A stretch of DNA of 64,000 nucleotides from Candidatus Nomurabacteria bacterium (GCA_943350445.1 CALRAE010000001.1:29561-93560), one strand, 5' to 3'; shown: positions 2,038 through 41,996, counted from the stretch's first letter. Numbers and translations are program-made. Notes: generated by a model not told the origin, from the letters alone.

Positions 2038-3327
2038 ATGATGAACAAACGCAGTTTCGCGCGTCCAGCTTCGGCAGGTGCGCACAAGTCTTCTGGTTTC
2101 ACTCCGAGACCTTCTAGCCCTTCTTATGGAAGTGGTAAGTTTAATAATTCTCGTCCTAGTTTTTCTAGAGGGGGAGGCAGAGGTGCTCCAAAGAGGGGTA
2201 GATTTGGTGGCGAGAGGATAGATGCTTCTCGTTTCATTAAAAAAGCTATACATGTGGAGGAAAAGCCATATGTAGCAAAGCATACATTTGCTGATTTTCC
2301 TTTTAATCCACAATTACATAAAAATATTAAGGGCGCTGGATTTGAACATCCACGACCGATTCAAGACCAATCAATTCCAACAGTTCTTTCTGGGCGTGAT
2401 GTTTTCGGTATGGCAAACACTGGTACAGGTAAGACTGCAGCCTTTCTTTTGCCTTTGATTGAAAAGATTTCTAAGACTAAAGGACTTTCTAAGAAAGAAA
2501 AAGTATTAATTATGGCGCCGACTCGTGAGCTTGCTTTACAAATCGAAAGTGATTTCAAAACTCTAGCTTTTGGATTCGGTATGTTCTCCGTGGCTTGTGT
2601 GGGTGGGCTACCAATCGGGAAGCAAATAAGAGAAATAAAAATGGGGGTATCGTTTGTTATCGGTACGCCGGGGCGTCTACGAGATTTGATTGACCAAAAA
2701 GTTCTAGACCTCTCTACTTGTCACTCTGTGGTACTCGACGAAGCTGACCGTATGCTCGATATGGGATTCCGTGATGATATGGTTTACATTATCGGCAAGA
2801 CTGCAAAGGAACGTCAAACTCTATTCTTCTCTGCGACTCTTTCTCCAGAAATTAGAAAAATGACGGAACAATATCTGAAAGATCCTGCTTTTATTTCTGT
2901 GATTTCAGGTGAGACAGCAAAAAATATCGAGCAAGATGTAGTTCGTTTTAGAGCTAAGGAAGAAAAAATAGAAAAACTGCACGAAGTTTTGAAAAAGGAC
3001 GGATCTGACAAAGTTCTTATCTTCCGCGAGATGAAACACAGCGTGGATTCTCTAGCGAAAGAACTTCAAGGTTTTGGATTTAAAGTGGGTGGTATTCATG
3101 GCGACAAGAGAAGTCGTGAACGTATCCGCATCCTTGATTCATTCAAAAAGGACCAGATCAACATCTTGATTGCGACAGACGTGGCAGCCAGAGGTCTAGA
3201 TATTCCAGATGTGACCCACGTCATCAACTACGACGTCCCACAAACATATGATACATATGTGCACCGCATAGGCCGAACAGGCCGCGCAGGCAAGAAGGGA
3301 ACAGCCTTGACCTTCGTGCCGGCGTAA
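2038..3327 (+). CDS. DEAD-box ATP-dependent RNA helicase with N-terminal RGG-rich extension
   Basis: Q-motif, AxTGTGKT, PTRELA, DEAD (VLDEADRMLDMGF), SAT and HRIGRTGRAG motifs; N-terminal 60 aa Arg/Gly/Ser-rich. Confidence 0.9.
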   Translation: MMNKRSFARPASAGAHKSSGFTPRPSSPSYGSGKFNNSRPSFSRGGGRGAPKRGRFGGERIDASRFIKKAIHVEEKPYVAKHTFADFPFNPQLHKNIKGAGFEHPRPIQDQSIPTVLSGRDVFGMANTGTGKTAAFLLPLIEKISKTKGLSKKEKVLIMAPTRELALQIESDFKTLAFGFGMFSVACVGGLPIGKQIREIKMGVSFVIGTPGRLRDLIDQKVLDLSTCHSVVLDEADRMLDMGFRDDMVYIIGKTAKERQTLFFSATLSPEIRKMTEQYLKDPAFISVISGETAKNIEQDVVRFRAKEEKIEKLHEVLKKDGSDKVLIFREMKHSVDSLAKELQGFGFKVGGIHGDKRSRERIRILDSFKKDQINILIATDVAARGLDIPDVTHVINYDVPQTYDTYVHRIGRTGRAGKKGTALTFVPA

Positions 3328-3343
3328 ATAATTATAGATAAAT

Positions 3344-3376
3344 AAAAAAACTCCACTAGGTGTGGAGTTTTTTTAT
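3344..3376. terminator. bidirectional intrinsic terminator
   Basis: A-run, ACTCCAC-tagg-GTGGAGT hairpin, T-run between the convergent helicase and rpmB genes. Confidence 0.6.
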
Positions 3377-3618
3377 GCCTTTATTAATCCAGCTTTGAGG
3401 AGGGTTGCGTAGGCGCCGTTTTTCTTCATGGTGCGCATGCCTTTAGTGGTTATTTCAATATTTAGGAATTTGTTTATCTCCGGCACGAAAACCCTCTTCT
3501 TTTGAAGGTTTACATACTTTCGGACTTTACCAGTAGGGTTGAATTTGGTCGCACGGGTCCTGTTAGAGTATCCGCCTCCCATGATTGAGCCCTTTTTTGT
3601 TATTGCGCATATTTTCAT
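3373..3618 (-). CDS. rpmB: 50S ribosomal protein L28
   Basis: 81 aa, basic; C-x-I-T-K-K-G...N-R-T-R-x-K-F-N-P pattern typical of L28. Confidence 0.6.
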   Translation of the reverse strand: MKICAITKKGSIMGGGYSNRTRATKFNPTGKVRKYVNLQKKRVFVPEINKFLNIEITTKGMRTMKKNGAYATLLKAGLIKA

Positions 3619-3649
3619 ATCAGTTACAAAATGCTATCATAAAATACAA

Positions 3650-4270
3650 ATGGAAGCAACCAACGCAGTATTTTATGTGGTCGTACTTGTGATGTCTATC
3701 GTTATTCACGAAGTCTCGCATGGTTTCATGGCGGAGTATTTTGGCGACAAGACGGCGCGCTTTGCAGGTAGGCTGACTTTGAATCCCATTAAACACTTAG
3801 ACCTTTTTGGCTCCGTCCTTTTGCCAGTCTTTCTGGTTTTCACACATTCTCCATTCTTGTTTGGTTGGGCGAAGCCCGTGCCATACAATCCAGAAAATTT
3901 AAGTAATAAAAAATGGGGGACTGTGGCCGTAGCATCAGCCGGAGTTCTCTCCAATTTCCTGATCGCTATTATTTTTGGGGTCATCATCCGTCTCTCACAC
4001 GGCATGACTTTACCAGAAGGTTTTTATTTCATAACTTCGATAATAGTCCTTGTGAACCTAGCCTTGGGAATATTCAACTTGGTTCCCATACCACCACTCG
4101 ATGGTTCAAAGATACTTTTCTCTCTTTTGCCACAATCTGCCTCTACGTATATTTCTCAGATTGAACAATACTCTCTTTTTCTGTTGATAATTTTCATTGT
4201 TTTCTTTTCTAACTATCTATACCCGATTTTGACTTTTCTCTTCAGTTTTCTTACCGGTCTTGCATTTTAG
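3650..4270 (+). CDS. site-2-protease-like membrane metalloprotease (peptidase M50 family)
   Basis: HEVSHGF (HExxH) in a TM helix plus NLVPIPPLDGSKIL (LDG motif). Predicted ORF 3539 would overlap rpmB, so ATG 3650 is the likely start. Confidence 0.55.
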   Translation: MEATNAVFYVVVLVMSIVIHEVSHGFMAEYFGDKTARFAGRLTLNPIKHLDLFGSVLLPVFLVFTHSPFLFGWAKPVPYNPENLSNKKWGTVAVASAGVLSNFLIAIIFGVIIRLSHGMTLPEGFYFITSIIVLVNLALGIFNLVPIPPLDGSKILFSLLPQSASTYISQIEQYSLFLLIIFIVFFSNYLYPILTFLFSFLTGLAF

Positions 4271-4345: not shown

Positions 4346-4771
4346 ATGGCAACAATCAATCAATTAGTTCGAAAAGGCAGATTCAAGGTCCATGCTAAAA
4401 CAAAGACTGTAGCTTTGGCGCGTGGATTCAACGTTCTAAAGAATCGCCCAGTCTTTTTCCCAGCTCCTTTTAAGAGAGGTGTTTGTACGAAAGTCTCTAC
4501 AACGACTCCAAAGAAGCCGAACTCTGCTCTACGAAAGATCGCTCGCGTACGTTTGACCAACGGCATGGAAGTCACCGCTTATATCCCAGGTGAAGGACAC
4601 AATCTACAAGAACACTCAGTCGTTATGCTCCGTGGAGGACGCGTAAAGGACTTGATCGGAGTGCGATATCACATCGTCCGTGGAGTGCTCGATACACAAG
4701 GAGTAGAGAAGAGACGACAAGGACGTTCACTATACGGAAACAAGAAACCGAAGGAAGCGAAAGCGAAATAA
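4346..4771 (+). CDS. rpsL: 30S ribosomal protein S12
   Basis: [12 protein letters not shown]...[10 protein letters not shown] conserved. Confidence 0.95.
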
Positions 4772-4824: not shown

Positions 4825-5295
4825 ATGCGAAGAAAAGTAAAAAATCGAAATATAGTAGCGCCAGACTTCATCTACAATTCTACAAAATTGGAGAAGTTTA
4901 TTAATTACATCATGTGGTCTGGAAAGAAGGAGACAGCCCGCAAGGTAATGTACGCTACTTTTGATACCATAAAAGAAAAGACTGGCAATCCAAATCCTCT
5001 TGAAGTTTTCGACTTGGCTATGAAGAACGCAGGTCCTTTGACTGAAGTTCGTTCAAAGCGTATCGGTGGAGCTAACTATCAGATCCCTATCGAAGTCCGT
5101 CCTGAAAGACGCAATGCTCTAGCTATGCGTTGGATTCGCGATGCTGCTCGTGGAGGAAAAGGCAAACCAATGCATTTGAAACTCGCCGATGAACTGATAG
5201 CTGCTTCAAAGAATGAAGGTTCTGCTATTAAAAAGAAGGAAGACACACACAAGATGGCCGAAGCAAACAAAGCTTTCGCTCACTTTGCTTGGTAG
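4825..5295 (+). CDS. rpsG: 30S ribosomal protein S7
   Basis: 156 aa; typical S7 N- and C-terminal motifs. Confidence 0.95.
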   Translation: MRRKVKNRNIVAPDFIYNSTKLEKFINYIMWSGKKETARKVMYATFDTIKEKTGNPNPLEVFDLAMKNAGPLTEVRSKRIGGANYQIPIEVRPERRNALAMRWIRDAARGGKGKPMHLKLADELIAASKNEGSAIKKKEDTHKMAEANKAFAHFAW

Positions 5296-5341: not shown

Positions 5342-5737
5342 ATGAATAAATCTTTTATTTTTTCTTTAATTTTGATTCTTCTAGGAGTATTTGGATTCTT
5401 CTATTTCCAATACTTAGGAAACAATTCTGTTGAACATTGCAAGGCTTTAAATAATTGTTCAGGTGCAGAAGGACTTCAGGGATTAGCCAGCTTCTTTTTT
5501 GCTCTTCCTATACTTTTAATAGGTTTGATTCTTTGTTGGGTATCACTATTTTCAAAAAGCAGCCTACTCATTTCAAGAGTGTATTCTTTAGTTGGAGGAA
5601 TAGTGGGCTTCTTGTTATTCATGCTTCTTGGAAGGTTTATTTTCTTTCTAAATATTGGATATTTAGGCTATCTTTTGATTGGAATAGTAGGTGCATCAAT
5701 AGGAATTTATATTGGTCGAAAAGTTGCGACGGTTTGA
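5342..5737 (+). CDS. hypothetical small membrane protein (4 predicted TM segments)
   Basis: 131 aa, hydrophobic; follows rpsG by 46 nt; no recognisable family. Confidence 0.4.
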   Translation: MNKSFIFSLILILLGVFGFFYFQYLGNNSVEHCKALNNCSGAEGLQGLASFFFALPILLIGLILCWVSLFSKSSLLISRVYSLVGGIVGFLLFMLLGRFIFFLNIGYLGYLLIGIVGASIGIYIGRKVATV

Positions 5738-5806
5738 TGTAAACAGAGTCTAAGGCTCTGAATCTCGCAAGGACCGTCCTTGCTATTGACTTGCTATGGA
5801 TCAAAA

Positions 5807-5828
5807 GACCACCGAAAGGTGGTTTTTG
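5807..5828 (+). terminator. intrinsic terminator
   Basis: GACCACC-gaaa-GGTGGTC hairpin followed by TTTTTGGTTT. Confidence 0.55.
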
Positions 5829-5829
5829 G

Positions 5830-5865
5830 TTTACACCGTTGACTTTTATTTTTGTTAAGTATATG
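5830..5865 (+). promoter_or_regulatory. promoter for the toxin-antitoxin module (TTGACT-17-TATGAT)
   Basis: Hexamers with 17-bp spacer immediately downstream of the terminator. Confidence 0.35.
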
Positions 5866-5912
5866 ATATTATAATATTAGATTATCATACAAATTAACAT
5901 AAGAATATAAAT

Positions 5913-6122
5913 ATGACCACATTATCAATACCCGTGTCAGGGGATTTAGAAAAATTTATAGAAGGGATGGTTAAAGTTGGGAAAGGTTCAAACAAAGCTG
6001 ACGTCGTTCGACGTGCCTTACGTGAGTATCAAGAGAATGAAATAGTTAAAACTATTTTACAGGCTGAAAATGAGCCTACAATGAAAGGGGACTTACGCGA
6101 TTTAATGAAAAAATTCAAATAG
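5913..6122 (+). CDS. type II antitoxin, ribbon-helix-helix (ParD/CopG-like)
   Basis: 69 aa; N-terminal beta-strand then KADVVRRALREY helix typical of RHH; 4-nt gap to the downstream toxin. Confidence 0.6.
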   Translation: MTTLSIPVSGDLEKFIEGMVKVGKGSNKADVVRRALREYQENEIVKTILQAENEPTMKGDLRDLMKKFK

Positions 6123-6126
6123 TCCG

Positions 6127-6387
6127 ATGATTCAGATATCTTTTAAACCGACTTTCGTAAAGCAAATGAATAAGCTTGAAAAAGCGTTGGTTGAAGAGGT
6201 GTTTGAAAAAATTGAATTATTTAAAAATAAGGAGAATCATAAGACACTAAAAGTTCACAAACTTCATGGTAAGTTAGCGGGATATTTCAGTTTCTCTCTG
6301 AATTATAAGTTTAGAATTGTATTTCTGTATGAATCGGGTAATCACGTTGTATTTCTTGATATTGGCGACCATGACTTATACAAGTAA
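6127..6387 (+). CDS. type II toxin, RelE/ParE superfamily (YafQ/StbE-like)
   Basis: 86 aa; H-K-L-x-G...FSFSLNYKFRIVF...VFLDIGDHDLYK matches the RelE/ParE fold signature. Confidence 0.7.
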   Translation: MIQISFKPTFVKQMNKLEKALVEEVFEKIELFKNKENHKTLKVHKLHGKLAGYFSFSLNYKFRIVFLYESGNHVVFLDIGDHDLYK

Positions 6388-6469: not shown

Positions 6470-8620
6470 ATGGAACGAGACTATCCACTAGAGAAAGTTA
6501 GAAATTTTGGAATTATCGCGCACATTGATGCGGGCAAGACAACGACGACAGAACGCGTGCTTTTTTATACTGGTACGAAGCATAAAATTGGCGAGGTGCA
6601 TGAAGGTGAGACGACGACAGACTGGATGGAACAAGAACGAGAGCGTGGTATTACTATCACCGCTGCCGCTGTCACTTGTTTCTGGATTCCGACATACGCT
6701 CCTACCGATAAAACAAAGAAGCATCGTTTTAATATTATTGATACTCCTGGACACATCGACTTTACTGTAGAGGTAAAGCGTTCTTTACGCGTTCTCGACG
6801 GCGCTGTGGTGGTGTTTGACGGTGTGGCTGGTGTTGAACCTCAGTCTGAGACGAACTGGAGATATGCTGACGAGGCAAAGGTTCCTCGTATTTGTTTTAT
6901 AAATAAATTAGATCGAACAGGTGCTTCTTTTGAACATTCTTATGCAACTATTTTAGACAGACTTAGTAAAAAGGCTGTTCGCGTGCAGATCCCTATTGGT
7001 CTCGAAGATAAATTTGAAGGAGTTATTGATTTGCTTCGCATGAAGGCTTTCTATTTCGAGGGAGACATGGGTAATACCATTATTGAAAAAGACATTCCAG
7101 AAAATATGAAAGCTGATGCAGCTAAATATCACTCAGAGCTAGTGGAGAAAATTGTTGAGACAGATGATGTCATGATGACAGAGTACTTAGAGGGGATGGT
7201 TCCTGGTTTTGATGTACTGAAAAAGACTCTCCGTAAGGCTGTTATTGATAATAAGATTTTCCCAGTTTTTGCTGGCTCTGCTCTAAAGAACAAAGGTGTT
7301 CAGCTCATACTTGATGCTGTGATAGATTATTTGCCAGCTCCGACAGATATCGCAGCTGTCTCCGGTATTGATCCAAATGATGATGACAAAGTAATAACTC
7401 GAAGTGCTTCCGACAAAGAGCCTTTTTCTGCGCTTGCTTTCAAAGTCGCGACTGATCCATTCGTCGGACAGATTATTTTCTTCCGTGTTTATTCTGGAAC
7501 ACTTGCTGCAGGTAGTTATATTTACAATCCTAGAACTCGTAATAAAGAGCGCATTGGACGAATTCTTCGTATGCATGCAAATGATCGAGAAGAAGTGAAG
7601 CAAGTCTTTGCTGGAGAAATAGCCGCAGCAGTGGGACTCAAGGACACAATTACATCAGACACTATCTGTGATGAAGAGAAGCCAATTATTCTAGATAGAA
7701 TTATTTTCCCTGAACCAGTTATTTCTCTACGCATAGAACCAAAAACAAAAGCTGACCAAGAGAAAATGGGTATGGCTTTGAACCGTCTAGCGCAAGAAGA
7801 CCCTACTTTTAGAGTGAGCAGTGATCAAGAAACAGGGGAGACTATCATTGCAGGGATGGGAGAATTACACTTGGAAATTATTGTTGATCGTATGAAGCGT
7901 GAGTTTACAGTTGAGGCAAATGTGGGCAAGCCACAGGTTGCTTATCGTGAAACAATCAATAGTTCTAGTGAAGCTGAAGGCAAATACATCAAGCAGTCTG
8001 GTGGACGCGGTAACTACGGACACGTGAAGATCAAGGTCAAGCCAATGGAAATGCTTACAAAGGAAGAAGTGGAAGATCTACCAAAGAATACAAAGCGATC
8101 TCCTGGATTTGAATTCATAAACAGCATCAAGGGTGGAGTTATTCCTCAGGAATACATTACTCACTGTGAAAAAGGATTCAAAGAAGGACTCGATCGTGGA
8201 GTTTCTGCTGGATTCAAAATGGTCAATGTCTCTGTAGAGCTTTGGGACGGTAGTTATCACGAAGTTGACTCAAACGAAATGGCTTTCAAAATCGCTGCAT
8301 CAATGGCAGTGCAAGATGCATGTAAACGAGCGAGCCCAGTCATCCTTGAGCCGATGATGAAGGTAGAAGTCGTGACTCCAGATAAATTCATGGGAGACGT
8401 AACAGGCAACCTTTCATCAAAGCGCGCGCTCATCGAAGGCATGGAAGATCGTGGTATGAACAAAGTCATCAAAGCCATTGTTCCTCTATCTGAAATGTTC
8501 GGATACATGACTGGCCTACGTTCTATGACTGAAGGCCGCGCATCATTCACGATGGAATTCTTCCGCTACGACATCGTGCCAAACAACGTGGCTGAAACTA
8601 TTATTGCGGCGAGGAAGTAG
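6470..8620 (+). CDS. fusA: elongation factor G
   Basis: 716 aa; [14 protein letters not shown]-domain and conserved domains II-V. Confidence 0.97.
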
Positions 8621-8651
8621 TTGTATTCGAACCAACATTCATGTTATAATA
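8581..8651. repeat. direct repeat copy 1 (fusA 3' end plus intergenic ATGTTATAATA)
   Basis: 40 nt AAACAACGTGGCTGAAACTATTATTGCGGCGAGGAAGTAG recurs at 10038-10077 with 3 mismatches; downstream ATGTTATAATA block also recurs. Confidence 0.75.
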
Positions 8652-8656
8652 AATTC

Positions 8657-10039
8657 ATGAGTTTTGATTTACCACCTGAAGATGAAGTACCAAGAAAACG
8701 AACTCCTGAAGAGTTAGCTTCTTTACTTAGTGAAACACAAAATATCTCAGGAGATAATATATATGAATTAATGCTAAAAGCTAAAACTTCGTTAGAGCAT
8801 TCTTCCCCAGAACAAACACAAAAACTCCTTGAGTCTATTAAATTGGCTGCAAATGATATAATTGATAGACAAAATGGTTATCTGGTTAACCTTCGTAATA
8901 AAATAGATCTTTGTTTTGATATACTCCATAGGGCAATGCTTGAAAATGTAGTGCCAGGCAATCCATATAATGAAATATGTCAAAAATCGCTTGATTTTGT
9001 CTTTGAAAAACAGATCCAGCTTTCTTCGTTTCATCAAACTTTTACGGATTTAAACAGTAAGTTTTTAGAAATCGATGTTAGTGTTTCGGGATCAGAGGAA
9101 TTATCAAAAATGGCTGAGAAATTGATTGAAATACTTGCAAAGGAAAAAGCCGCGATGGACGAGTATATAGATGCTGTAGATAAGTTAAGTGTAAATGTGA
9201 AAGCCCGAGCTCTTTTTAAAGTTATGGAAAAACGGTCTGCCAATTCGGATGATCGAGGTGTTAAAGTTGACAATGTAGAAGCCGCATCCGTTAAAACCCC
9301 TACTCCAGATATAAAAAATGCGGGCGATAGAAACACTAAAGATGTATTAAGTAACGAATCCATAGTTAGACCTTCTTTGTCAGAATCATATGATCCTAGA
9401 TTGAATGAAGTTATAGAGAGATCAAAAAATGCGAGTGAGAAAATAAAAAACCAAGTTTTTAAGTTAACTCAAAGAAGATCTTTTTTTGAAAATAGCCTCA
9501 GAAAACATCTTGATTATATAAGAAGGGATTTTTCTTGGCTTATCAAAAATCCGGAAGATCAAATAGGGGGTGGGGAATATAAAGGTTGGACATCTGAAGA
9601 AATAAAGGAATACTATTTTGTATTATATGGAACAGATGACTTTCCAAAACAATCTGAGGTGCAGCCTTTAATGGGTCAGATTTTGGGTTCCAGGGAAAAA
9701 CATAATGAAAATATTGAAAACAGACAGCCTGATTCAGGAGTGGATATTTCAACAGAAACTCTTTTCGTGGACCTTGAAAAAGTTCAAAATGTAGAAGGTG
9801 CGTTTAATATTTTTCAAAAAGCTCATTTTCTGTTAGAAAAAGAAGGTGGTTTTTTTTCTAAAAAAAGAAAAGAACTTAGGGCTCTAAAAAAAGCGGCTCT
9901 TGCAAAAATGAGACAAGTTAGTGGGCTTTCGCTAGAAGATATATCCAGGATTGAATCAGGCTCGGATCTGGGAACTTCCCAATACAGAAGATATTTTTAT
10001 TTGGCAAAAAAACTTGGTATTCCACATAAATGGTTTTAA
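8657..10039 (+). CDS. hypothetical soluble protein inserted between fusA and tuf
   Basis: 461 aa from ATG 8657 (track gives TTG 8621); no TM, no signal peptide, no recognisable domain; acidic/helical. Confidence 0.5.
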   Translation: MSFDLPPEDEVPRKRTPEELASLLSETQNISGDNIYELMLKAKTSLEHSSPEQTQKLLESIKLAANDIIDRQNGYLVNLRNKIDLCFDILHRAMLENVVPGNPYNEICQKSLDFVFEKQIQLSSFHQTFTDLNSKFLEIDVSVSGSEELSKMAEKLIEILAKEKAAMDEYIDAVDKLSVNVKARALFKVMEKRSANSDDRGVKVDNVEAASVKTPTPDIKNAGDRNTKDVLSNESIVRPSLSESYDPRLNEVIERSKNASEKIKNQVFKLTQRRSFFENSLRKHLDYIRRDFSWLIKNPEDQIGGGEYKGWTSEEIKEYYFVLYGTDDFPKQSEVQPLMGQILGSREKHNENIENRQPDSGVDISTETLFVDLEKVQNVEGAFNIFQKAHFLLEKEGGFFSKKRKELRALKKAALAKMRQVSGLSLEDISRIESGSDLGTSQYRRYFYLAKKLGIPHKWF

Positions 10040-10104
10040 ACAACGTGGCTGAGACCATCATTGCGGCGAGGAAGTAGACCTTGATACTATTTTATGTTAT
10101 AATA
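10038..10104. repeat. direct repeat copy 2 (non-coding duplicate of the fusA 3' end)
   Basis: See copy 1; in this copy the duplicated fusA codons are non-coding. Confidence 0.75.
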
Positions 10105-10327
10105 GAGGTATGGAAGACTCATTTCATACAACCCATCTTCCTGCGGAATATGAAAGGAAGGGAAGAAACATGAAAGTCTTATTGAGAGCGTTCTTGCTCA
10201 CGTTGCGGAATCTACTCATCATCTCGACCATCAGATCAACATCGTCATCGGAATAAGCGCAGCGACGTTTCTTCTTTCTGTATCAATTTTTGAAAAGGAA
10301 CACGGAAGTGCTCCTCTATTTTTCGTA

Positions 10328-10642
10328 ATGATCTTTGCTGGAGCTTCCGCTCTCGTGGGTTTGCTCGCAGTGCATCCGCCACGATTTATGAGGAAGCGTG
10401 GCCAGCCGGAGAGTCTGCTTTATAAGAAAAAGATTGAAAGTTTTAGTTCACCAGCAGAATACGAGAAAGCAGTTTTATTAGCGATGAAAACTCCAGCAAA
10501 AACCCGTGAACAATATGCAATTGAGATTTACAACTTATGTAAATATTACTATAGTCCGAAACGCAAACTCTTCCATGTGTCTCGCAAGCTTCTATTTGTT
10601 GGGATAGCTTTGAGTCTGGTTACGTTTCTAATTGGGGTTTGA
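10328..10642 (+). CDS. small hypothetical membrane protein (possibly frameshifted; upstream ORF from 10110)
   Basis: 104 aa with 2 TM helices. Frame continues upstream to 10154 without a start codon and overlaps a 49-aa ORF (10110-10256) in another frame. Confidence 0.3.
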   Translation: MIFAGASALVGLLAVHPPRFMRKRGQPESLLYKKKIESFSSPAEYEKAVLLAMKTPAKTREQYAIEIYNLCKYYYSPKRKLFHVSRKLLFVGIALSLVTFLIGV

Positions 10643-10814: not shown

Positions 10815-12008
10815 ATGTCAGAAGAATTTAAAAGAGATAAACCACACGTAAACGTAGGTACGATCGGTCACGTCGACCATGGTAAGACTACTTTAACGGC
10901 TGCAATCTTGCATGTGTTAAACATGGCTGGAAAGCAAGTTCGACTTCGAGGTGTTGATCAGATTGACTCAGCTCCAGAAGAAAAGGCTCGTGGAATCACC
11001 ATTAACATATCTCACAACGAGTATGCTACCGATGCACGTCACTATGCGCACATTGATGCTCCAGGACACGCAGACTACATCAAGAACATGATCACTGGTG
11101 CCGCTCAGATGGACGGCGCTATTCTTGTAGTTGCGGCGACTGACGGCGCTATGCCACAGACTCGTGAACACGTTCTTCTTGCAAAACAAGTTGGTGTTCC
11201 AAAAATGATCGTTTTCCTAAACAAGTGCGATATGGTTGACGATAAAGAAATGATTGACTTGGTTGAAGAGGAAATACGAGAACTTCTTACAAAGCAAGGT
11301 TTTGATGGCGCTGGCGCTCCAGTTATCCGTGGTTCTGCTCTCAAAGCTCTTGAATCAAAATCTGTGGATGATGAATGGGCAAAGAAAATTCTTGATCTTG
11401 CAAATGCTCTTGATACATATATTCCTGTTCCAATCCGAGAGTTAGCAAAACCTTTCCTTATGCCTGTCGAAGACATCTTCTCAATCGAAGGCCGTGGCAC
11501 AGTTGTGACTGGTAAGATCGAAAGAGGAGTAGTCAAGGTTGATGAGGAAATAGAAATTGTCGGAATCAAGCCTACTCAGAGATCAGTTGTTACAGGTATC
11601 GAAATGTTCAACAAGAATCTAAAAGAGGGTATGGCTGGCGACAACGCTGGTATCCTTCTCCGAGGTCTTAAAAAGGAAGATATAACTCGCGGACAAGTTC
11701 TTTGTAAACCTGGAACTACAACTCCACATGACAATTTCACAGCTGAAATTTATGTTTTGAAAAAGGAAGAAGGTGGACGTCACACTCCTTTCTTCAAGGG
11801 TTACAAGCCTCAATTTTATGTTCGAACTACAGATGTTACAGGTGATGTGACTCTAGCTGAAGGAACAGAGATGGTTATGCCCGGAGATACTGTAAAAATA
11901 ACAGTTAAATTAGTCACTCCAGTAGCACTCGAAGAATCACAGAGATTCGCGATCCGCGAAGGAGGCAAGACAGTCGGAGCTGGAGTGGTTACCAAGATCC
12001 TCGGATAG
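10815..12008 (+). CDS. tuf: elongation factor Tu
   Basis: 397 aa; [13 protein letters not shown] and DAPGHADY motifs. Confidence 0.97.
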
Positions 12009-14930: not shown

Positions 14931-15458
14931 TTAACTCAATTTCTCAAAAGCCATTTTGACTGCTTCCTTTTCGTCAGAGAACATGGCTATGGTGTTTTCG
15001 TCTGTTACACCCGTGTTTCTATCTATATGTTTCAGGTCTACAATTTTTTTCACATCATTTGGTCTGATTACCCTAAACCCTCCAAATGAAGCTTTTTTCT
15101 CTCTATTTATCATATTTTTCCACACTTTTTCTTCTATAATGGCTCCATAAGTGATTACTTGTTTCTCTGGTTTTTCATAGTTTATCAATTCTATTAATTT
15201 TCCTGTTTCAGATAATTTTTTCACTATAAGTAATAGTTCATCTCCGAGTTCTTCTTGAACTTCTCGAAATAGCGCTTGCATAAAGTCTTCACCTTCTTCA
15301 AGTCCACCATGAGCCGTCACCTGGCACATGCCTGGATAGGATTCTGGGCAGTTTTTTTCTGCATCCCATTTTGCACGCACTTGCAGTATGGCCACCAATC
15401 CTCCATCTTTATTTTTGCCTAATAGTTGTATTCCGACGGATTTCTTTTTATTTTGCAT
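14931..15458 (-). CDS. NUDIX hydrolase
   Basis: 175 aa; Nudix box GGLEEGEDFMQALFREVQEELG; antisense to the ribosomal operon. Confidence 0.7.
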   Translation of the reverse strand: MQNKKKSVGIQLLGKNKDGGLVAILQVRAKWDAEKNCPESYPGMCQVTAHGGLEEGEDFMQALFREVQEELGDELLLIVKKLSETGKLIELINYEKPEKQVITYGAIIEEKVWKNMINREKKASFGGFRVIRPNDVKKIVDLKHIDRNTGVTDENTIAMFSDEKEAVKMAFEKLS

Positions 15459-15891: not shown

Positions 15892-16245
15892 ATGACAAGA
15901 TCACTCAAAAAAGGTGTATATGCAGATGAAAGGCTCTTGAAAAAGATTGCCGGCAAAAACCCGCTCAATACTCCTACTGTAAAGACATGGAAAAGAGCCG
16001 TAGTTATCTCTCCAGAGATGCTTGGCTTCACTTTTGGTGTTTACAACGGCAAGGTGCATGTGGATGTTCTTGTCACCGAAGACATGGTGGGTCACAGACT
16101 AGGCGAATTTTCTCCAACCAAGAAGTTTACGAAACACGGAGGAAAGATGCAGAAAGAGCTTGAGCAAAAGAAAAAGGAAGCTGAAATAACTGCTGCTAAG
16201 GGCGCGACTGCAGCCGCAGTGGACGCAAAAGCACCTAAGAAATAG
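15892..16245 (+). CDS. rpsS: 30S ribosomal protein S19 with Lys/Ala-rich C-terminal tail
   Basis: Core GHRLGEFSPTKKF etc. matches S19. Confidence 0.9.
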   Translation: MTRSLKKGVYADERLLKKIAGKNPLNTPTVKTWKRAVVISPEMLGFTFGVYNGKVHVDVLVTEDMVGHRLGEFSPTKKFTKHGGKMQKELEQKKKEAEITAAKGATAAAVDAKAPKK

Positions 16246-16270
16246 TTCGACAAGCTCACTATAAATAATC
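16243..16270 (+). repeat. 26-nt exact repeat TAGTTCGACAAGCTCACTATAAATAA (copy 1, after the rpsS stop)
   Basis: Identical 26-mer recurs at 22459-22486 after the rpsZ stop. Confidence 0.7.
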
Positions 16271-19540: not shown

Positions 19541-19617
19541 ACGAAGAAATAGAAATTGTGAGGCAAGACCTCACAACTAATTTTGGTATAACTGCATGAT
19601 TGTTATATAATGTTTAT

Positions 19618-20034
19618 ATGCCTGAGGATATGAAAATCCCCAATAGTTCTGAGATTGATCAAGCCTTAAGAGAGTTTGAGGCACAGTCACATCCTCTGGG
19701 TCAGACGACACAAAAAGCTCCTGAAGCTCCAAGGGTATCTGATACTTTTAAGACCGAAACAACAGGAATAAGTTTTGAAACTGACAGTCTTAAATCGATA
19801 AATAATGCCAACGAAATTGTTGTGCCCAGAATGGTAAGAATCGTGATGAAACTCTCTGGAGGAGCTATAAAAGAGCAAAAACAGGCAGAATATGTGCTTC
19901 TCGGCTTTGCTTTAGTGATATTCCTTATTTCGCTGTATTTGTTTTTTGGCGGAGGTGAACCTACTCAAAAAATTTCCAACGAAGAATCTGTACAAAACTA
20001 TAATAATTATTATGAAAATCTACATAAAAAATAA
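19618..20034 (+). CDS. hypothetical C-terminally membrane-anchored protein, paralog 1
   Basis: ~138 aa; shares conserved block MV(R/K)(I/L)VMKLSGGAIKEQ(K/R)QAEYVLLGF and C-terminal TM helix with 21221-21616; stop overlaps the pilin start. Confidence 0.45.
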   Translation: MPEDMKIPNSSEIDQALREFEAQSHPLGQTTQKAPEAPRVSDTFKTETTGISFETDSLKSINNANEIVVPRMVRIVMKLSGGAIKEQKQAEYVLLGFALVIFLISLYLFFGGGEPTQKISNEESVQNYNNYYENLHKK

Positions 20035-20548
20035 AAGAGGTTTCACTTTGATTGAACTTCTGGTGGTAGTTGCCATCATTGGTCTTTTGTCTTCTGTTAT
20101 ACTAGCTTCTTTAAATAGTGCTAGGAGTAAGGCAAGAGATGCAGTAAGATTGTCTGATATAAAACAAATTTCTAATGCATTGGAATTATATTATAGCAAT
20201 AATGGTGTATACCCTTCAGGCCAATTTTTAAGTATTAAAAATACTTCTGATCCTAATAGTGTTTGGCAATGTTGTGGTGGGAGTGCATTCATAGCAGCAT
20301 TAGCACCTTATTTACCAAAATTACCAATTGATCCAAAAAATAATGATGTAACTTGTTATGCAAATGGCGCTCATTTTTACACTTATCAATCATTTAACGC
20401 AGGGAAAAATTATGGAATATATGCTTCACTTGAAAATCCAAAAGCGGGTGCAGCAGACCCAGCTAATTACCCCTGTTGTGCGACGTCTGCTCCCGGCAAC
20501 TGTATGTATAAAGCTACTAATGGAGGGGTGGGAATTGTTCCAAATTAA
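20012..20548 (+). CDS. type IV pilin-like protein (prepilin)
   Basis: MKIYIKNKRGFTLIELLVVVAIIGLL is a class III signal peptide (G-FTLIE); C-terminal Cys pair. Confidence 0.75.
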   Translation: MKIYIKNKRGFTLIELLVVVAIIGLLSSVILASLNSARSKARDAVRLSDIKQISNALELYYSNNGVYPSGQFLSIKNTSDPNSVWQCCGGSAFIAALAPYLPKLPIDPKNNDVTCYANGAHFYTYQSFNAGKNYGIYASLENPKAGAADPANYPCCATSAPGNCMYKATNGGVGIVPN

Positions 20549-20608
20549 TTTGACTAATTACCTCCAAAAGCTCGCAAAGCTCGCAAGAAGCTCGCAAGGA
20601 CTGTCCTT

Positions 20609-21136
20609 TTGCACTCCGTCAGCCAAACGGCAGACGGAGGCTACGTCCTCGGTGGACTCTCTTGGTCCGGAGTTTCAACCAACAAGTCAGACCCAAGCTA
20701 CGGCTTCGGGGATTACTTGGTGGTCAAGCTTGATGCCTCCGGCAACAAGCAGTGGGACAAGACTTTCGGCGGGTCTGACACCGACGAACTCACCTCCCTT
20801 CAGCAGACCGCTGACGGAGGATTCATTCTCGGTGGATGGTCATGGTCGGGTGTCTCCGGCAACAAGACGACCGCCAACATTGGGGTCTCAAGTTTCTGGG
20901 TCATCAAACTCGACCCTCCACCATCCCTCAGTCTTTCCGCAGTCGGGAAGACAAATGGGTTCAATGCATTCAGGTTGAGTGGGCCTGCCGGGTCTTACTC
21001 GATCCGGGCATCGACGAACTTCGTTAACTGGGTGCCTCTTACGAGCATCACCCTTGACGGCACGAACGCTACTGTCTTCGTGGACACGCAGTCCACGAAC
21101 TACCCCTCTCGGTATTACCGGGCGGTGGGGCAGTAA
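20609..21136 (+). pseudogene. high-GC fragment encoding a beta-propeller (SBBP-like) repeat protein remnant
   Basis: Repeats TADGG(Y/F)(V/I)LGG.SWSGVS.NK; GC ~55-58% versus ~38% flanks; no credible N-terminus or signal peptide; alternative-frame ORF spans the same DNA. Confidence 0.5.
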
Positions 21137-21220
21137 GCCTTCATCTATCACATCGAACGGGCTCTCCTTTTTAGGGGGGCCCTGTTTTGTTTTTTATAAG
21201 AATGAGTATATAATTTATTT

Positions 21221-21616
21221 ATGGATGAACAATTAAACCTTCAGGGAAATGCAGAGATAGATGCGGCCTTGAAAGAATTTGAAGCCAAGTCTAGTCCTCA
21301 AGCTGTGACTAATAATCCTATAGCACCTGGGATTTCTAGTGTTCCCAAAATGCCAACATCCGGTATTAGTTTTGATACCGATAATTATAGATCTATAAAT
21401 AAAGAAGAGGTTCCTTTACCAAAGATGGTTAAGCTTGTTATGAAGCTTTCTGGTGGAGCGATAAAAGAACAACGACAAGCCGAATATGTCCTGTTGGGGT
21501 TTGTTGCTATAATAATTAGTATTTCCGTCTATTTATTTTTTGGTGCAAATGGATCTCGTCAATCATCTTTTTCTCCGTCTACTGAGCAAATGATGAAAGC
21601 GGGACAGAATAGATAA
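21221..21616 (+). CDS. hypothetical C-terminally membrane-anchored protein, paralog 2
   Basis: 131 aa; paralog of 19618-20034 with the same conserved block and architecture. Confidence 0.45.
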   Translation: MDEQLNLQGNAEIDAALKEFEAKSSPQAVTNNPIAPGISSVPKMPTSGISFDTDNYRSINKEEVPLPKMVKLVMKLSGGAIKEQRQAEYVLLGFVAIIISISVYLFFGANGSRQSSFSPSTEQMMKAGQNR

Positions 21617-21621
21617 AAAAT

Positions 21622-22119
21622 ATGAAATTTTTAAACAAAAATAAAGGTTTTACTTTAATAGAGCTTCTCGTGGTGGTGGCTATCATTGGGCTTCTGGCTT
21701 CTGTTGTTTTGGCAAGTTTGAGTACTGCGAGGGGTAGAGGAAGGGATGCAAAGAGACTTCAAGATATGAATCAGGTTCGTACTGCCCTGGAACTTTACAA
21801 CAGTACAAATAATGCATATCCTAGTACTGGCGGTGCTTGGTGGGGTGTTTGCCCAGCATTTCAAAGCAAAGGAACATCTGGTTTTGGTGGGTACATTCCT
21901 GATCTAGCTCCAACATATATTCCTATTTTACCAACTGAACCAAAACCCACAGCTAATAATACTTGCTATGTTTACCGTTCTGATGGTAGGGATTATATTT
22001 TCTTAGTCTATTTAACTGTAGAGGGCAACATACCGAACTCGTTAAAACGTCCCGGTATTTGGTCAGCCGAGAAGGATTATGCTATTTATACTTCAGCGTC
22101 AGTAGTAGCAGGTTGGTAG
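21622..22119 (+). CDS. type IV pilin-like protein (prepilin)
   Basis: MKFLNKNKGFTLIELLVVVAIIGLLASVVL class III signal peptide. Confidence 0.75.
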   Translation: MKFLNKNKGFTLIELLVVVAIIGLLASVVLASLSTARGRGRDAKRLQDMNQVRTALELYNSTNNAYPSTGGAWWGVCPAFQSKGTSGFGGYIPDLAPTYIPILPTEPKPTANNTCYVYRSDGRDYIFLVYLTVEGNIPNSLKRPGIWSAEKDYAIYTSASVVAGW

Positions 22120-22276
22120 GATAAAAAGGGTTTGACTAATAACATCTAATTTGCTAGTATTTAATCCAAGGGAAATAGGTCTTAGTTAATCCACTTTTCT
22201 CCTTTGATTCTCTATATTTTAGAGGTTTAAAGAAAAAAAGTGAGATATTACAGGGTCTACCCTCAATTATTTATTT

Positions 22277-22462
22277 ATGGCAAAAACATCAGTTATCGCA
22301 AGATCACTTAAAAAGCCCAAGTTTAGCACTCGACAAAAAAATCGATGTTTTCGATGTGGCCGAGGCAATGCTTTCATGCGAGACTTCGGTATTTGCCGTA
22401 TCTGTTTTAGAGAATTAGCAAACGAAGGAATGCTTCCAGGAGTCCGTAAATCAAGCTGGTAG
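22277..22462 (+). CDS. rpsZ: 30S ribosomal protein S14, zinc-binding type Z
   Basis: 61 aa; [22 protein letters not shown] contains the Cys4 motif. Confidence 0.85.
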
Positions 22463-22486
22463 TTCGACAAGCTCACTATAAATAAA
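22459..22486 (+). repeat. 26-nt exact repeat TAGTTCGACAAGCTCACTATAAATAA (copy 2, after the rpsZ stop)
   Basis: Identical to 16243-16270. Confidence 0.7.
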
Positions 22487-35592: not shown

Positions 35593-36029
35593 TAGGTTTT
35601 TTCCGTTAAGTTTTTTTGACCTAATCAGTTCAGTTGTATAATTTCCTGTTCTGACTTGAGTTGATTAAAGGTAATTTTCTCAATATTGTTTTCGTTACCT
35701 TCTTCCAATTCTAAGGCAAGTTCGACTCGTAAGTCCCACTTGCCTTTGCGATGCACTGTGACCTCTATTGTGATTACATTTTCCACAACTAGCCTTTCTC
35801 TTTTGTTTTCGAACAGCCAACACTTGTTATCTATTATATAACTTTAAGGCAAATTGTTAATTTCCCTTGGATTTAATACTCTTATTTTTTGTGGAACTGA
35901 CGAGAATTGAACTCGTGTGCAGAAGGCTTTTGCATTGAAGTCTACATATATAGCGCGCTTTTTTGTTTAGATTAAAAAATTCTTAAACGCGCCAAATATT
36001 TTTAAATCGAGTTCCTTTGTTTTGCACTA

Positions 36030-36347
36030 TTGGCGGAACGGTCAATATGCTATCCCGATAATATTATGCCTCTACTGATATATCGGAAGTCTATAAGAGA
36101 GACACGAGCTTACGCTAAAGCGGAAACTCGAGCAAAAGCGAAGTCATTCATACCGAAGTATGGAGAGACAGCCGCTTTTACTTTGGAAGCTAATTTTGCA
36201 ATTAAGCTATTGAACGAAGTTTTACGAGATTACGTCCATTCTCGATATGCATCAAATACATACGGCCTACTGTCTATGCCTAGCAGTCCCATGTTATTAG
36301 AAAATACGGAATATAAATTTTTCCGGTACGAATTTTTTGAAGCTTAA
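36030..36347 (+). CDS. hypothetical protein
   Basis: 105 aa; no recognisable domain; stop codon lies inside repeat copy B. Confidence 0.3.
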   Translation: MAERSICYPDNIMPLLIYRKSIRETRAYAKAETRAKAKSFIPKYGETAAFTLEANFAIKLLNEVLRDYVHSRYASNTYGLLSMPSSPMLLENTEYKFFRYEFFEA

Positions 36348-39398: not shown

Positions 39399-39475
39399 GA
39401 GGGAAGGGTAGTTTTACTCGTGTATACGAACCATGGTATACTATGCCAATACCTATCATTCATAGGTTCACTATA

Positions 39476-40150
39476 ATGGCAAGAAAATTAGATAAACAAA
39501 AGGCTCTAGCTATGCGTCAAAAGGGGATGAGTTATAGCCAGATTAAAGATCATATTGGTGTAAGTAAGAGCACCTTGAGTGGGTGGCTTAAAGATTTTCC
39601 TCTTAGTGAAAAAAGAATTAGAGAGTTGAGGGACAATAGCCCAATTCGTATTGAACGCTACAGGAATACAATGCGAGCTAAAAAAGAAGCCCGCCTAAAG
39701 ATGGTTTATGAAAAAGTGTCGAAAGACATAGGTGTTTTCTCAAAACGAGAAATTTTCTTATTGGGCATGTTCTTGTACTGGGGAGAAGGCACTAAAGCTA
39801 AAAATACTTCAGTTGCTCTCACAAATACAAATCCCGCAATGGTTAAGTTCTTTATCAATTGGCTTGATTCGTTTAATGTGCAAAGGAAAAAATTAAAAGT
39901 TAAATTGTATTTATATTCCGATATGAATATTAATAAATCTATTGCTTTTTGGTCAAAAGAGCTTAGAATACCAGTAAGCCAATTTACGAAGCCATACATT
40001 AAAAAGACTAATTTGGCATCGATAACTTATAAAAATGGCTTTGGTAAGGGGACTTGTTGTGTAATGTTTGATAATCGAGATCTTTTGGAATATATAATAA
40101 TGGGTTTGAAATATATTTCTGAAGTTAGTAATAAAAATATCCACCCTTAG
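39476..40150 (+). CDS. HTH-containing protein with LAGLIDADG-like motif (possible homing-endonuclease-like)
   Basis: N-terminal HTH MSYSQIKDHIGVSKSTLSGWL; later FLLGMFLYWGEGTK resembles a single LAGLIDADG motif; last 10 nt overlap tRNA-Ile. Confidence 0.35.
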   Translation: MARKLDKQKALAMRQKGMSYSQIKDHIGVSKSTLSGWLKDFPLSEKRIRELRDNSPIRIERYRNTMRAKKEARLKMVYEKVSKDIGVFSKREIFLLGMFLYWGEGTKAKNTSVALTNTNPAMVKFFINWLDSFNVQRKKLKVKLYLYSDMNINKSIAFWSKELRIPVSQFTKPYIKKTNLASITYKNGFGKGTCCVMFDNRDLLEYIIMGLKYISEVSNKNIHP

Positions 40151-40213
40151 CTCAGTTGGTAGAGCGAGCGCCTTATACGCGCCAGGTCCCTGGTTCGAGT
40201 CCAGGAGGGTGGA
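40141..40213 (+). tRNA. tRNA-Ile, apparent anticodon UAU
   Basis: Manual fold: 7-bp acceptor (C1-G72), D-arm GCTC/AGTTGGTA/GAGC, anticodon stem with one A.C mismatch, loop CTTATAC, T-arm CCTGG/TTCGAGT/CCAGG, discriminator A; CCA not encoded. Confidence 0.65.
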
Positions 40214-40283
40214 CATTAACGAGTTTTAAAAGGTTTTTAAAGAACCCTTGTAATTTATTTAGATTATAAGATATAATATAGTC

Positions 40284-40466
40284 ATGGAAAACCAAAAGAC
40301 AGGCGTAGATGAAATTTTTACTTGCGCAAAGTGTGGGAAGCAGAAAAAAAGATCCGAAGGGAAATTTGTTTTGGAGGGTTCTACTTTTTGTTGCAAGCAG
40401 TGTTGTGGTGATCCTTCTATTAGTAAGCATAAGGAAAAAGCTTCAGCTGTCTGTGAATTTTGTTAA
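40284..40466 (+). CDS. small Cys-rich metal-binding protein (TRASH/YHS-like)
   Basis: 60 aa; CAKCGK...(17)...FCCKQCC plus C-terminal CEFC. Confidence 0.45.
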   Translation: MENQKTGVDEIFTCAKCGKQKKRSEGKFVLEGSTFCCKQCCGDPSISKHKEKASAVCEFC

Positions 40467-40474
40467 ATTTTGTG

Positions 40475-41272
40475 ATGAAAAGACATTTATTTTTTTTAGT
40501 CATTATCTTTTTTATGAGCGCCAGTTCTGTTTTGGCGCATGTTGGGAATGAGTCCACTTTAGTAGAGACGATATCAAAAAATTCTTTTTCCTTTGTTACG
40601 ATTGGTGGTTTTTTAATTTCATTTTTAGTGATTTTGGCAAGCTTATATCCAAAATCTTCAGAGGCTTTTAAAATTTCTGTATTTGTTTTAATTACAATTA
40701 TCTCTTTGGGTATTACGTTTTATCTTTCCGGAACAACTATATATAAAAATAACAAATCAGCCACTGGTGGGCCAGTCCACTGGCACGCTGATTTTAGGAT
40801 TTTTACTTGCGGAGAAGAATTAGATTTAATCAAACCAACTGGATTTTTTAACAGAATTGGTAAAACTGATCTGCATGAACATGGTGATAAAAGAATTCAT
40901 GTAGAGGGAGTTGTAATGGATAAAAGAGACATCTCTCTGAGTAACTTTTTTAAAGTTATTGGTGGTAATCTTGCTTACGGTGAGTTTAATTTCCCAGGCC
41001 GAGAGAAATATGAAAGATTTATAGATGGTGATAAATGTGAAGATGGGCGAGAGGGTAAACTTCAAGTTTTTGTGTATAAGACCGAAGGAATGGAAATTAA
41101 ACAGAACAAAATTGCAGATTATCCTGAATATGTATTGTCTGGAGAATCAAAAATTCCTCCCGGTGATTGCATAATTTTTGAATTTACTCCTGATGAAAAA
41201 GATAAAACTGATCAGATTTGTAATTTTACAAAGATTGCCATAGATAAAGGAAAATTTAATTATATAAAATAA
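40475..41272 (+). CDS. exported/membrane protein with His-rich motifs
   Basis: Signal peptide plus 2 TM; HWHAD and HEHGDKRIH motifs in the extracytoplasmic domain. Confidence 0.4.
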   Translation: MKRHLFFLVIIFFMSASSVLAHVGNESTLVETISKNSFSFVTIGGFLISFLVILASLYPKSSEAFKISVFVLITIISLGITFYLSGTTIYKNNKSATGGPVHWHADFRIFTCGEELDLIKPTGFFNRIGKTDLHEHGDKRIHVEGVVMDKRDISLSNFFKVIGGNLAYGEFNFPGREKYERFIDGDKCEDGREGKLQVFVYKTEGMEIKQNKIADYPEYVLSGESKIPPGDCIIFEFTPDEKDKTDQICNFTKIAIDKGKFNYIK

Positions 41273-41273
41273 T

Positions 41274-41984: not shown

Positions 41985-41996
41985 GATAATAAGGTC

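Follow-up and report, generated by a model that had tools for sequence, protein, structure and literature searches.

A second fusA end at the fusA-tuf junction of a Candidatus Nomurabacteria genome as the probable scar of a gene insertion from a related genome

The 64,000-nt stretch of Candidatus Nomurabacteria bacterium DNA analyzed here (GCA_943350445.1 CALRAE010000001.1:29561-93560; hereafter the window) holds the str/S10 ribosomal super-operon of an uncultured Patescibacterium, in which a cargo gene, ORF460, and a second copy of the fusA 3' end lie between fusA and tuf. The operon includes rpsL (4346-4771), rpsG (4825-5295) and an intact fusA (6470-8620, plus strand), which encodes a 716-aa elongation factor G (EF-G) with the Pfam domains GTP_EFTU, EFG_III, EFG_IV, and EFG_C. 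On the right, tuf (10815-12008, plus strand; EF-Tu, 397 aa) forms the conserved flank of the variable region and is followed by rpsJ, rplC and onward. The EF-G of the window is 89% identical to that of a metagenome-assembled genome named 'Patescibacteria group' and 86% identical to that of Candidatus Nomurabacteria GW2011_GWA2_40_9, and its identity to related Patescibacteria spans 61-89%. To interpret the locus, we compared it with those of 80 species-level relatives (labeled L###), giving 81 sources with the window.

Based on the repeat search and pairwise alignment, positions 8581-8620 recur as a direct repeat at 10038-10077, with 37 of 40 nucleotides identical. The repeat unit consists of the final 12 codons of fusA, the stop codon, and one base. 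Copy A (8581-8620, plus strand) is the functional 3' end of fusA, and copy B (10038-10077, plus strand) is a displaced or imported pseudo-3' end with no fusA body attached. The three mismatches lie at 8595/10052 (A/G), 8598/10055 (T/C), and 8601/10058 (T/C). All are third-position transitions and synonymous, changing GAA, ACT, and ATT of copy A to GAG, ACC, and ATC of copy B, and both copies therefore specify an identical 12-residue peptide; under random substitution, the chance of an unchanged peptide is P ~0.01-0.04. In a self-comparison of the 64 kb, this was the strongest direct repeat (E = 5.7e-8), and only two others reached E < 1e-3.

Downstream of each stop codon, a second block recurs with 13 of 14 nucleotides identical, TTCATGTTATAATA at 8638-8651 and TTTATGTTATAATA at 10091-10104 (both plus strand), of the form T(T/C)ATGTTATAATA. 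The core of this promoter-like block, TGTTATAAT, has the form of an extended -10 element and occurs exactly twice in the 64 kb, 22 and 18 nt past the two stop codons. In block A, it occupies 8642-8650 and is followed by 6 nt and the ATG of ORF460 at 8657; in block B, it occupies 10095-10103 and is likewise followed by 6 nt and an ATG, at 10110. This spacing suggests a leaderless-type start at both positions. In block B, the -35-like hexamer TAGACC overlaps the stop codon of the remnant, and the site has 10 of 12 consensus matches with the TG present. The spacers between the 40-nt and 14-nt blocks, 17 and 13 nt, respectively, are unalignable. An initial reading made from the sequence alone (the sequence-only reading) had described a repeat of ~65 bp, which proves to be these two blocks with unrelated spacers between them; its core match at 8584-8620/10041-10077 with three silent mismatches was borne out, at the slightly greater length given above, as was its recurring block at 8641-8651/10094-10104.

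ORF460 (8657-10039, plus strand) starts at ATG 8657 and encodes 460 aa, one fewer than first proposed. Its frame stays open for 472 codons, whereas shuffling the same DNA gave no more than 166, and ORF460 is a genuine gene. Its GC content is 0.34 (38.4% for the whole window), and its GC at third codon positions (GC3) is 0.224 against a window median of 0.32, a low extreme for the window, as would be expected of imported DNA. The product is hydrophilic, with a maximum 19-residue Kyte-Doolittle value of 0.74 versus 2.5-2.6 in membrane-protein neighbors; it has no signal peptide and no membrane or hydrophobic segment, and its N-terminus, MSFDLPPEDEVPRKRTPEE, is hydrophilic. It is predicted, at low confidence, to be all-helical. 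The solubility first proposed for this protein thus stands, as does the lack of a transmembrane helix or signal peptide, whereas its proposed role as a possible secreted effector finds no backing in a signal peptide, a hydrophobic segment, or any neighborhood or homology pointing to secretion.

Searches of ORF460 against Pfam, NCBIfam, PHROGs, and PADLOC returned nothing significant and no recombinase, and to that extent the absence of a detectable domain claimed by the sequence-only reading holds. A phmmer search of 1.84 billion representatives, however, gave 41 matches including ORF460 itself, of which ~38 are mostly ~100-aa proteins that align to residues ~245-330. This central domain (9389-9646, plus strand), delimited by phmmer, alignment A2, and a structural model, belongs to an uncharacterized family of ~80 aa with the motif NDFxxLxxNPxDExGGGxYxGWTxxEIxELYxVLYGE, shared with ~40 small Patescibacterial proteins. 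The model comprises four helices (pLDDT 83.6), and the domain has no match in Pfam, in the PDB by sequence, or in Foldseek by fold; the sequence profile search of the PDB returned only noise. Members of the family (P0002 and P0004-P0050 in alignment A2) are usually whole ~100-aa proteins, although the domain is sometimes tandemly duplicated or placed at the C-terminus of large membrane proteins, and the family appears confined to Patescibacteria-type metagenome bins. The genes for the small proteins sit in mutually unrelated contexts; the closest domain relative, P0002, lies on a 1.4-kb contig whose context is uninformative.

The one full-length homolog is P0003, a 571-aa protein of another Patescibacterium, encoded after murG in a cell-wall cluster. 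Its N-terminus is homologous to residues 1-170 of ORF460 (8657-9166, plus strand; BLASTP 28%, E = 2e-12), and its C-terminus to residues 360-459 (9734-10033, plus strand; 42%, E = 7e-19), a region with no Pfam match. In a word-indexed search of 5.8 billion proteins, with ORF460 alone or with an ORF460 and P0003 profile, only these two proteins were returned. Viral contigs held no confirmed relative of ORF460 or of its central domain, metagenome contigs held no confirmed ORF460 relative or DNA, and the gene is absent from all 80 related species. Collectively, these comparisons characterize ORF460 as a probably soluble, predicted helical protein of a rare Patescibacterial family rather than as a strict orphan, as it had been called, since both the central domain family and P0003 share regions with it.

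There is no strong terminator between fusA and ORF460, whereas most relatives have one after fusA. ORF460 is therefore probably transcribed by read-through from fusA in addition to its own putative extended -10 promoter. Beyond copy B lies a gene for a PycTM-like membrane protein (10110-10642, plus strand), identified with Pfam and PADLOC on the conceptual product. The frame of ATG 10110 is only 48 codons long, and the frame that matches PycTM extends from a TGA at ~10151 to 10642, so the gene is apparently frameshifted at ~10150-10170. The conceptual 159-aa product matches Pfam PF18967 with 28.4 bits (cut-off 27.2) and the PADLOC PycTM model over positions 5-152 of 160 (E = 1.9e-8). As the sequence is identical in three assemblies, the gene is probably a true pseudogene. 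Although the conceptual translation contains the PycTM effector domain, the locus does not qualify as a Pycsar anti-phage system, since its frame is interrupted and the fusA-tuf gap holds no cyclase gene; moreover, none of the 80 relatives has a counterpart of the PycTM-like gene at all.

To place the insert in context, we examined the fusA-tuf gap across the 80 species, where it ranges from 89 bp to more than 7 kb. In five loci (L081, L058, L021, L075, and L012), only 89-152 bp separate fusA from tuf, a near-direct succession that the sequence-only reading had named as something to look for. The gaps of the five closest relatives measure 0.56-5.8 kb, with no genes common to each other or to the window, and ORF460, at 0 of 80 junctions, is not conserved at this position across the lineage. 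Among 204 gap ORFs, there are only 18 homologous inter-locus pairs, and 149 gap ORFs of relatives match a heterogeneous set of 93 Pfam families, including peptidoglycan-binding proteins, HepT toxins, and assorted housekeeping genes. Two IS200-type Y1 transposases occur among the relatives' gap ORFs, and the 25 commonest of the 93 families include no integrase. In Patescibacteria, this junction is a hotspot at which gene content changes.

The right end of the insert joins the cargo gene directly to copy B. The TAA stop codon of ORF460 consists of T10037 and A10038-A10039, the last two being the opening bases of copy B, so that no 3' untranslated DNA remains; in alignment, P0003 extends two residues beyond ORF460. 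This hybrid stop, the missing 3' untranslated region, and the longer homolog place the joint within the last codons of ORF460, which is typical of an illegitimate joint and not of the end of a self-contained element. A domain scan of the insert ORFs found no integrase, transposase, or reverse transcriptase, no recombinase was present among the scanned window ORFs, the insert ends carry no terminal inverted repeats, and no tRNA or Rfam element lies near the insert. The features that do recall integrative elements are the flanking direct repeats made of the target gene's 3' end and the target kept intact by a replacement end with three synonymous differences; the recombinase that such an element encodes is missing from the insert.

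Three other classes of element were considered and rejected. An insertion sequence, miniature inverted-repeat transposable element, or transposon does not account for the insert, which has no inverted repeats, a 40-nt and imperfect repeat, and no transposase domain. An integron cassette is likewise rejected, given junctions without the attC cores RYYYAAC/GTTRRRY and no integrase among the scanned window ORFs. For a diversity-generating retroelement, the differences between the copies (A/G, T/C, T/C) are not confined to adenine, and there is no reverse transcriptase.

The two copies are best compatible with fusA-end alleles of two related genomes, since their differences are synonymous only and the promoter-like block is kept while the spacer is not. 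The coding end, the -10 block, and the 6-nt distance to the ATG are retained, and the spacer has diverged beyond alignment; this is how a region under purifying selection would look after divergence in separate genomes. For comparison, the window, L005, and L006, whose EF-G proteins are 87% identical, share the same tail peptide with about half of its codons silently different. Here, only 3 of the 13 codons differ, and the second allele would accordingly come from a much closer relative. The sequence-only reading spoke of an insertion or duplication into the str operon; the signature of insertion at the fusA-tuf junction stands, and a simple in-place duplication does not fit.

Taken as a whole, the locus is most probably explained by the insertion at this junction of foreign DNA from a related genome, leaving an allelic fusA end behind, a reading to which we assign a probability of roughly 0.8. 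The scar would comprise the 1,457 bases between the copies plus the second copy, produced by recombination at the fusA-tuf junction. What results would be tandem versions of one region, each with the last 13 fusA codons, a spacer, a TGnTATAAT promoter, six nucleotides and an ATG, and each version, from its own related genome, would drive a different gene, namely ORF460 or the now frameshifted PycTM-like gene. For the mechanism, enzyme-free, homology-anchored recombination with a relative's DNA stands at about an even chance. DNA of a close relative would have been taken up and paired homologously on one side only, in conserved fusA or tuf, while the other side was joined illegitimately, a process that can be described as homology-facilitated illegitimate recombination or as an equivalent single crossover, of Campbell type, by a circularized fragment. 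The joint would connect the last codons of ORF460 to a point about -40 nt from the end of a fusA gene, so that one fusA end stays attached and functional and the other persists as a 40-nt pseudo-end.

This homology-anchored mechanism is proposed because of the hybrid stop codon, the lack of an enzyme and of termini, the variable repeat lengths, the hotspot between conserved flanks, and the type IV pilus set (PilM, PilB, PilT, PilC, and pilins) encoded in the window. Type IV pili are linked to competence, and the set is compatible with DNA uptake. Homology-facilitated illegitimate recombination has reportedly been observed during transformation of Acinetobacter and Streptococcus pneumoniae. The present locus resembles it in its one-sided anchor in a conserved gene, an illegitimate far joint, the lack of an element enzyme, and foreign cargo beside the anchor; that process is known mainly from laboratory selections. 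The repeat and its presence in the DNA, the silent-only differences, the lack of the cargo in relatives, and the recurrence restricted to fusA are shown directly, whereas the enzymology of the event is inferred, as would be any order in which the two cargo genes arrived; ORF460 is the compositional outlier, but the codons of copy A are those that the resident fusA prefers.

A number of observations weigh against this account. Each ORF of 100 aa or more was searched for a second, downstream occurrence of its 12 C-terminal residues ending in a stop codon; among 1,593 ORFs from 81 sources, only fusA scored, and it did so eight times (seven loci and the window), while the reverse-strand and upstream controls gave zero. 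One locus, L024, carries two further ends in tandem and thus three fusA ends in total. Moreover, in five of nine events (the window, L024 twice, L025, and L022), the remnant has its left boundary at the conserved Val-Pro codons, -40 to -45 nt. Homology-facilitated illegitimate recombination predicts neither a recurrence specific to fusA nor a clustering of boundaries, and both, unexpected of random illegitimate joints, fit a site-specific process better. Furthermore, the resident fusA itself favors GAA, ACT, and ATT, the codons of copy A, so the direction of the event is not readable from codon usage, and codon choice gives no indication of which copy is native. An empty site would read from the fusA body straight into copy B (..ATCGTGCC followed directly by AAACAACGTGGCTGAGACC..ACCTTGATAC). 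An exact degenerate 39-nt pattern aimed at an empty site or other alleles had 0 matches in metagenome contigs, and a donor genome was not found in the protein and metagenome-contig searches.

The extra ends in other lineages, which like the frameshifted PycTM-like gene had gone unremarked in the sequence-only reading, vary in length and cargo. In L030, a 101-nt copy with 98% identity lies 3.1 kb downstream of fusA; the remnant tail differs but is a valid EF-G end (..IKAARK*) with its stop codon in register. In L073, an identical 63-nt block precedes a final 18 nt in which seven substitutions are all silent and keep EGKRR* (P <= 2e-5), and the insert is only ~140 nt long and non-coding. In L032, a HEPN (HepT-like)/MNT nucleotidyltransferase toxin-antitoxin cassette (9131-9943) lies between perfect 22-nt direct repeats, ATCGCGTCCAGAAAGTAAACCA, which include the last five fusA codons and the stop codon, with a separate terminator hairpin after each repeat. 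L028 has a HepT gene of 62% identity at the same junction, without repeats. The left edges in these three scarred loci lie at -141 (L030), -78 (L073), and -17 (L032). In L022, L025, and L049, the second fusA end lies just 31-65 nt past the stop codon. Furthermore, the spacer after the first copy in L025 resembles the native flank of its relative L027, which suggests that the downstream copy in L025 arrived with foreign DNA.

Roughly one in ten of the related species carries a similar extra end. These genomes are scattered, most of them sharing 64-78% EF-G identity, and the scar is missing from their nearest relatives (86-91% EF-G identity), except that L025 and L032, both affected, are a pair with 89% identity. 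For these reasons, the extra fusA ends are independent events.

The short units that follow the fusA stop codon in four of these loci, each made of a hairpin spacer, a C-terminal end, and a stop codon, lie at 4494-4597 in L022, 9140-9367 in L024 (two units), 9149-9243 in L025, and 9158-9227 in L049. In all four, the hairpin is GC-rich, reads GCCCCGT..., and closes in GGG(G) just ahead of the remnant. A motif, GCCCCGTAGC.TCCCG....CGGGAT, is common to L022 and L024 despite their EF-G identity of 72%, and within L024, the hairpin is 95% identical between the two units, though the adjoining coding ends differ at most codons. A search of the hairpin-bearing loci against Rfam returned no family. Direct repeats were also observed in L036, where those at 3691-3747/4340-4396 (57 nt, 96%) and 2900-2939/4429-4468 (40 nt, 95%) surround a toxin-antitoxin pair downstream of fusA; the first repeat overlaps the 3' end of the toxin gene, a hint of a similar gene-end duplication for a mobile toxin-antitoxin cassette.

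Several known systems offer partial parallels. The minimal mobile elements of Neisseria and the integration hotspots reported in bacteria are said to be bracketed by conserved genes, and here fusA and tuf likewise bracket content that differs in nearly every species; unlike in the classical exchange of such elements, in which a double homologous crossover replaces the cassette, a duplicated gene end is left behind. In Streptococcus thermophilus, ICESt1, ICESt3, and their gene-less CIME derivatives reportedly occupy the 3' end of fda and accumulate in tandem. As in those elements, the direct repeats here derive from the 3' end of a housekeeping gene, and no recombination genes lie between the att-like repeats; the three fusA ends of L024 are similar to arrays with three repeats and resemble accretion at an att site. 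In contrast, no cognate integrase-bearing element was found in any of the 81 loci, and the repeat boundaries are not constant. The literature searched yielded nothing relevant on fusA serving as an att site or on insertions into ribosomal operons of this radiation. A further parallel concerns e14 and phage 21 at the 3' end of icd in Escherichia coli, where the inserted DNA supplies an alternative end with mostly synonymous differences and an icdC pseudo-end lies beyond (Hill et al. 1989, as cited in PMC13626634, for e14; PMC13626634). In both cases, the essential gene is intact, and the other version of its end is left as a short pseudo-end past the insert. However, e14 is a prophage of 15 kb that encodes its integrase and excises site-specifically, whereas the present insert is 1.46 kb long with one gene and no recombinase, and its far joint cuts into the stop codon of the cargo gene.

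The principal rival explanation is that the locus is the remnant of a site-specific integrative element, or of an integrase-less element mobilized in trans, with its attB in the last ~15 codons of fusA, in which case copy A would be the end supplied by the element and copy B the displaced native end. We regard this as possible but on balance unlikely. The restriction of extra ends to fusA speaks for it, as do the at least eight independent occurrences, spread over scattered lineages with closest relatives that have no extra end, the clustering of left boundaries at -40 to -45 nt, the array of three ends in L024, the L032 toxin-antitoxin cassette in a perfect 22-nt repeat that includes the fusA stop codon, and the replacement ends with synonymous differences likewise seen in icd and icdC (PMC13626634). 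Yet no recombinase is present in the window insert, and none was recognized in the ORFs read from L030, L032, and L073, where the L030 and L032 inserts were partly scanned. Neither the repeat lengths nor the left boundaries are uniform (-17, ~-40 to -45, -78, -141), the stop codon of ORF460 is made by the junction and is hence no element terminus, the ends of the different inserts have no sequence in common, and no tRNA-like or other known att structure is evident. A related and more tentative idea, which we likewise consider unlikely, is an undescribed insertion process addressed to the last ~15 fusA codons in Patescibacteria. Such a process may insert ~75 nt to 3 kb at a time, with each insert supplying a new EF-G C-terminal end and pushing the older one downstream. 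It could conceivably depend on an unknown site-specific enzyme acting in trans or, alternatively, on cassettes without a recombinase for which the conserved gene end serves as a homology 'address' once the DNA has been taken up. Under this process, the hairpin units of L022, L024, L025, and L049 would be minimal forms and the ORF460 segment a cargo-bearing form.

Three further alternatives were weighed. If the last ~75 nt of fusA and the promoter had been duplicated in place and had then diverged, with ORF460 inserted or arising between them, the direct orientation of the copies and their same layout (coding end, spacer, -10 block, ATG) would follow; this is improbable, however, since a non-coding downstream copy should gain replacement changes as readily as silent ones, and all changes here are silent. 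The synonymous pattern of L073 is even more extreme. In addition, one neutral clock cannot yield both a spacer that is unalignable, with a 4-nt length difference, and only 3 changes in 40 nt, and ORF460 has homologs elsewhere and is therefore not a new local product. Equally, copy B might have been kept because it is functional, either as a promoter or operator part for the downstream gene or as a 15-codon mini-ORF (ATG 10030 to TAG 10077). The -35-like TAGACC overlapping the remnant, the 10/12 consensus site, the in-frame ATG at 10030, and the preserved coding potential of the remnants in several lineages would accord with this, but the remnants of L024, L025, and L049 have no in-frame start codon, remnant lengths vary widely, no RNA family in Rfam matches, and a recent origin from a functional allele accounts for the preserved coding potential, making such a function quite improbable. 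An assembly artefact joining two co-existing strains is harder still to credit. The data are metagenomic, and both Logan contigs (L002 and L003, from different runs) start at window position 8287 inside fusA, which hints at strain variation nearby. Nevertheless, the same arrangement is present in three assemblies from three accessions and two assemblers (the 94-kb ENA contig and the two Logan contigs from other runs), with 100% identity across both junctions and the exact ORF460 protein called on contigs of all three accessions, so it is not a mis-join; moreover, the longest exact runs common to the copies are 15 and 18 nt, below any assembler k-mer, and therefore no de Bruijn or k-mer path could have joined them. 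The start at 8287 that both contigs share lies ~300 nt before copy A; it suggests that strains branch there and is possibly the edge of an exchanged tract.

Further interruptions of ribosomal operons and other candidate acquisitions were observed in the window. Between rpsG and fusA, a second str-operon insert (5342-6387) encodes a multi-pass membrane protein of 131 aa (GC3 0.24) along with a weak RHH-antitoxin/RelE-HigB-like toxin pair (5913-6122 and 6127-6387); no direct repeats were found flanking it. In L036, homologs of both genes of this pair (70% and 57% identity) are situated downstream of fusA, at 3228-3711. A NUDIX hydrolase gene (14931-15458, minus strand) separates rplB from rpsS. 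In the spc operon, the insert between rplE and rpsN (19600-22270) holds two paralogous pairs, each of a small membrane protein and a type IV pilin-like protein with an N_methyl motif, as well as overlapping ORFs at 20358-21136 in a GC-rich stretch (GC 0.51). Two identical 26-nt copies of TAGTTCGACAAGCTCACTATAAATAA, in direct orientation, occur at 16243-16268 and 22460-22485, where each opens with the stop codon of rpsS or rpsN and lies 8-11 nt ahead of the ATG of rplV or rpsH; a common intergenic signal or a further trace of recombination may account for them. Further along the window, a tmRNA gene with a long predicted tag lies at 35891-36290, and a tRNA-Ile(TAT) gene (40141-40214) overlaps the end of an ORF for an HTH protein and is followed by three genes of low GC3 (0.22-0.24), including SfLAP-like and MgtE-like transporters; this region (39443-42596) may be another acquired segment.

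The structure at the fusA-tuf junction is of a known kind, and the fusA-specific recurrence without a recombinase is the part worth follow-up. If a dedicated mechanism does underlie this recurrence and the clustered boundaries, it would represent a new way to target the end of an essential gene while the gene stays intact. The extra fusA ends act as molecular fossils that mark events, show related donors, and can be searched for systematically. The analysis also defines a small uncharacterized domain family (GGGxYxGWT...LYxVLYGE) that is apparently common in the radiation. For the reduced genomes of uncultured Patescibacteria, the locus offers a concrete, datable case of how genes are gained, with DNA from relatives apparently joined in beside the most conserved chromosomal genes, within a core translation operon and with no evident mobile element.

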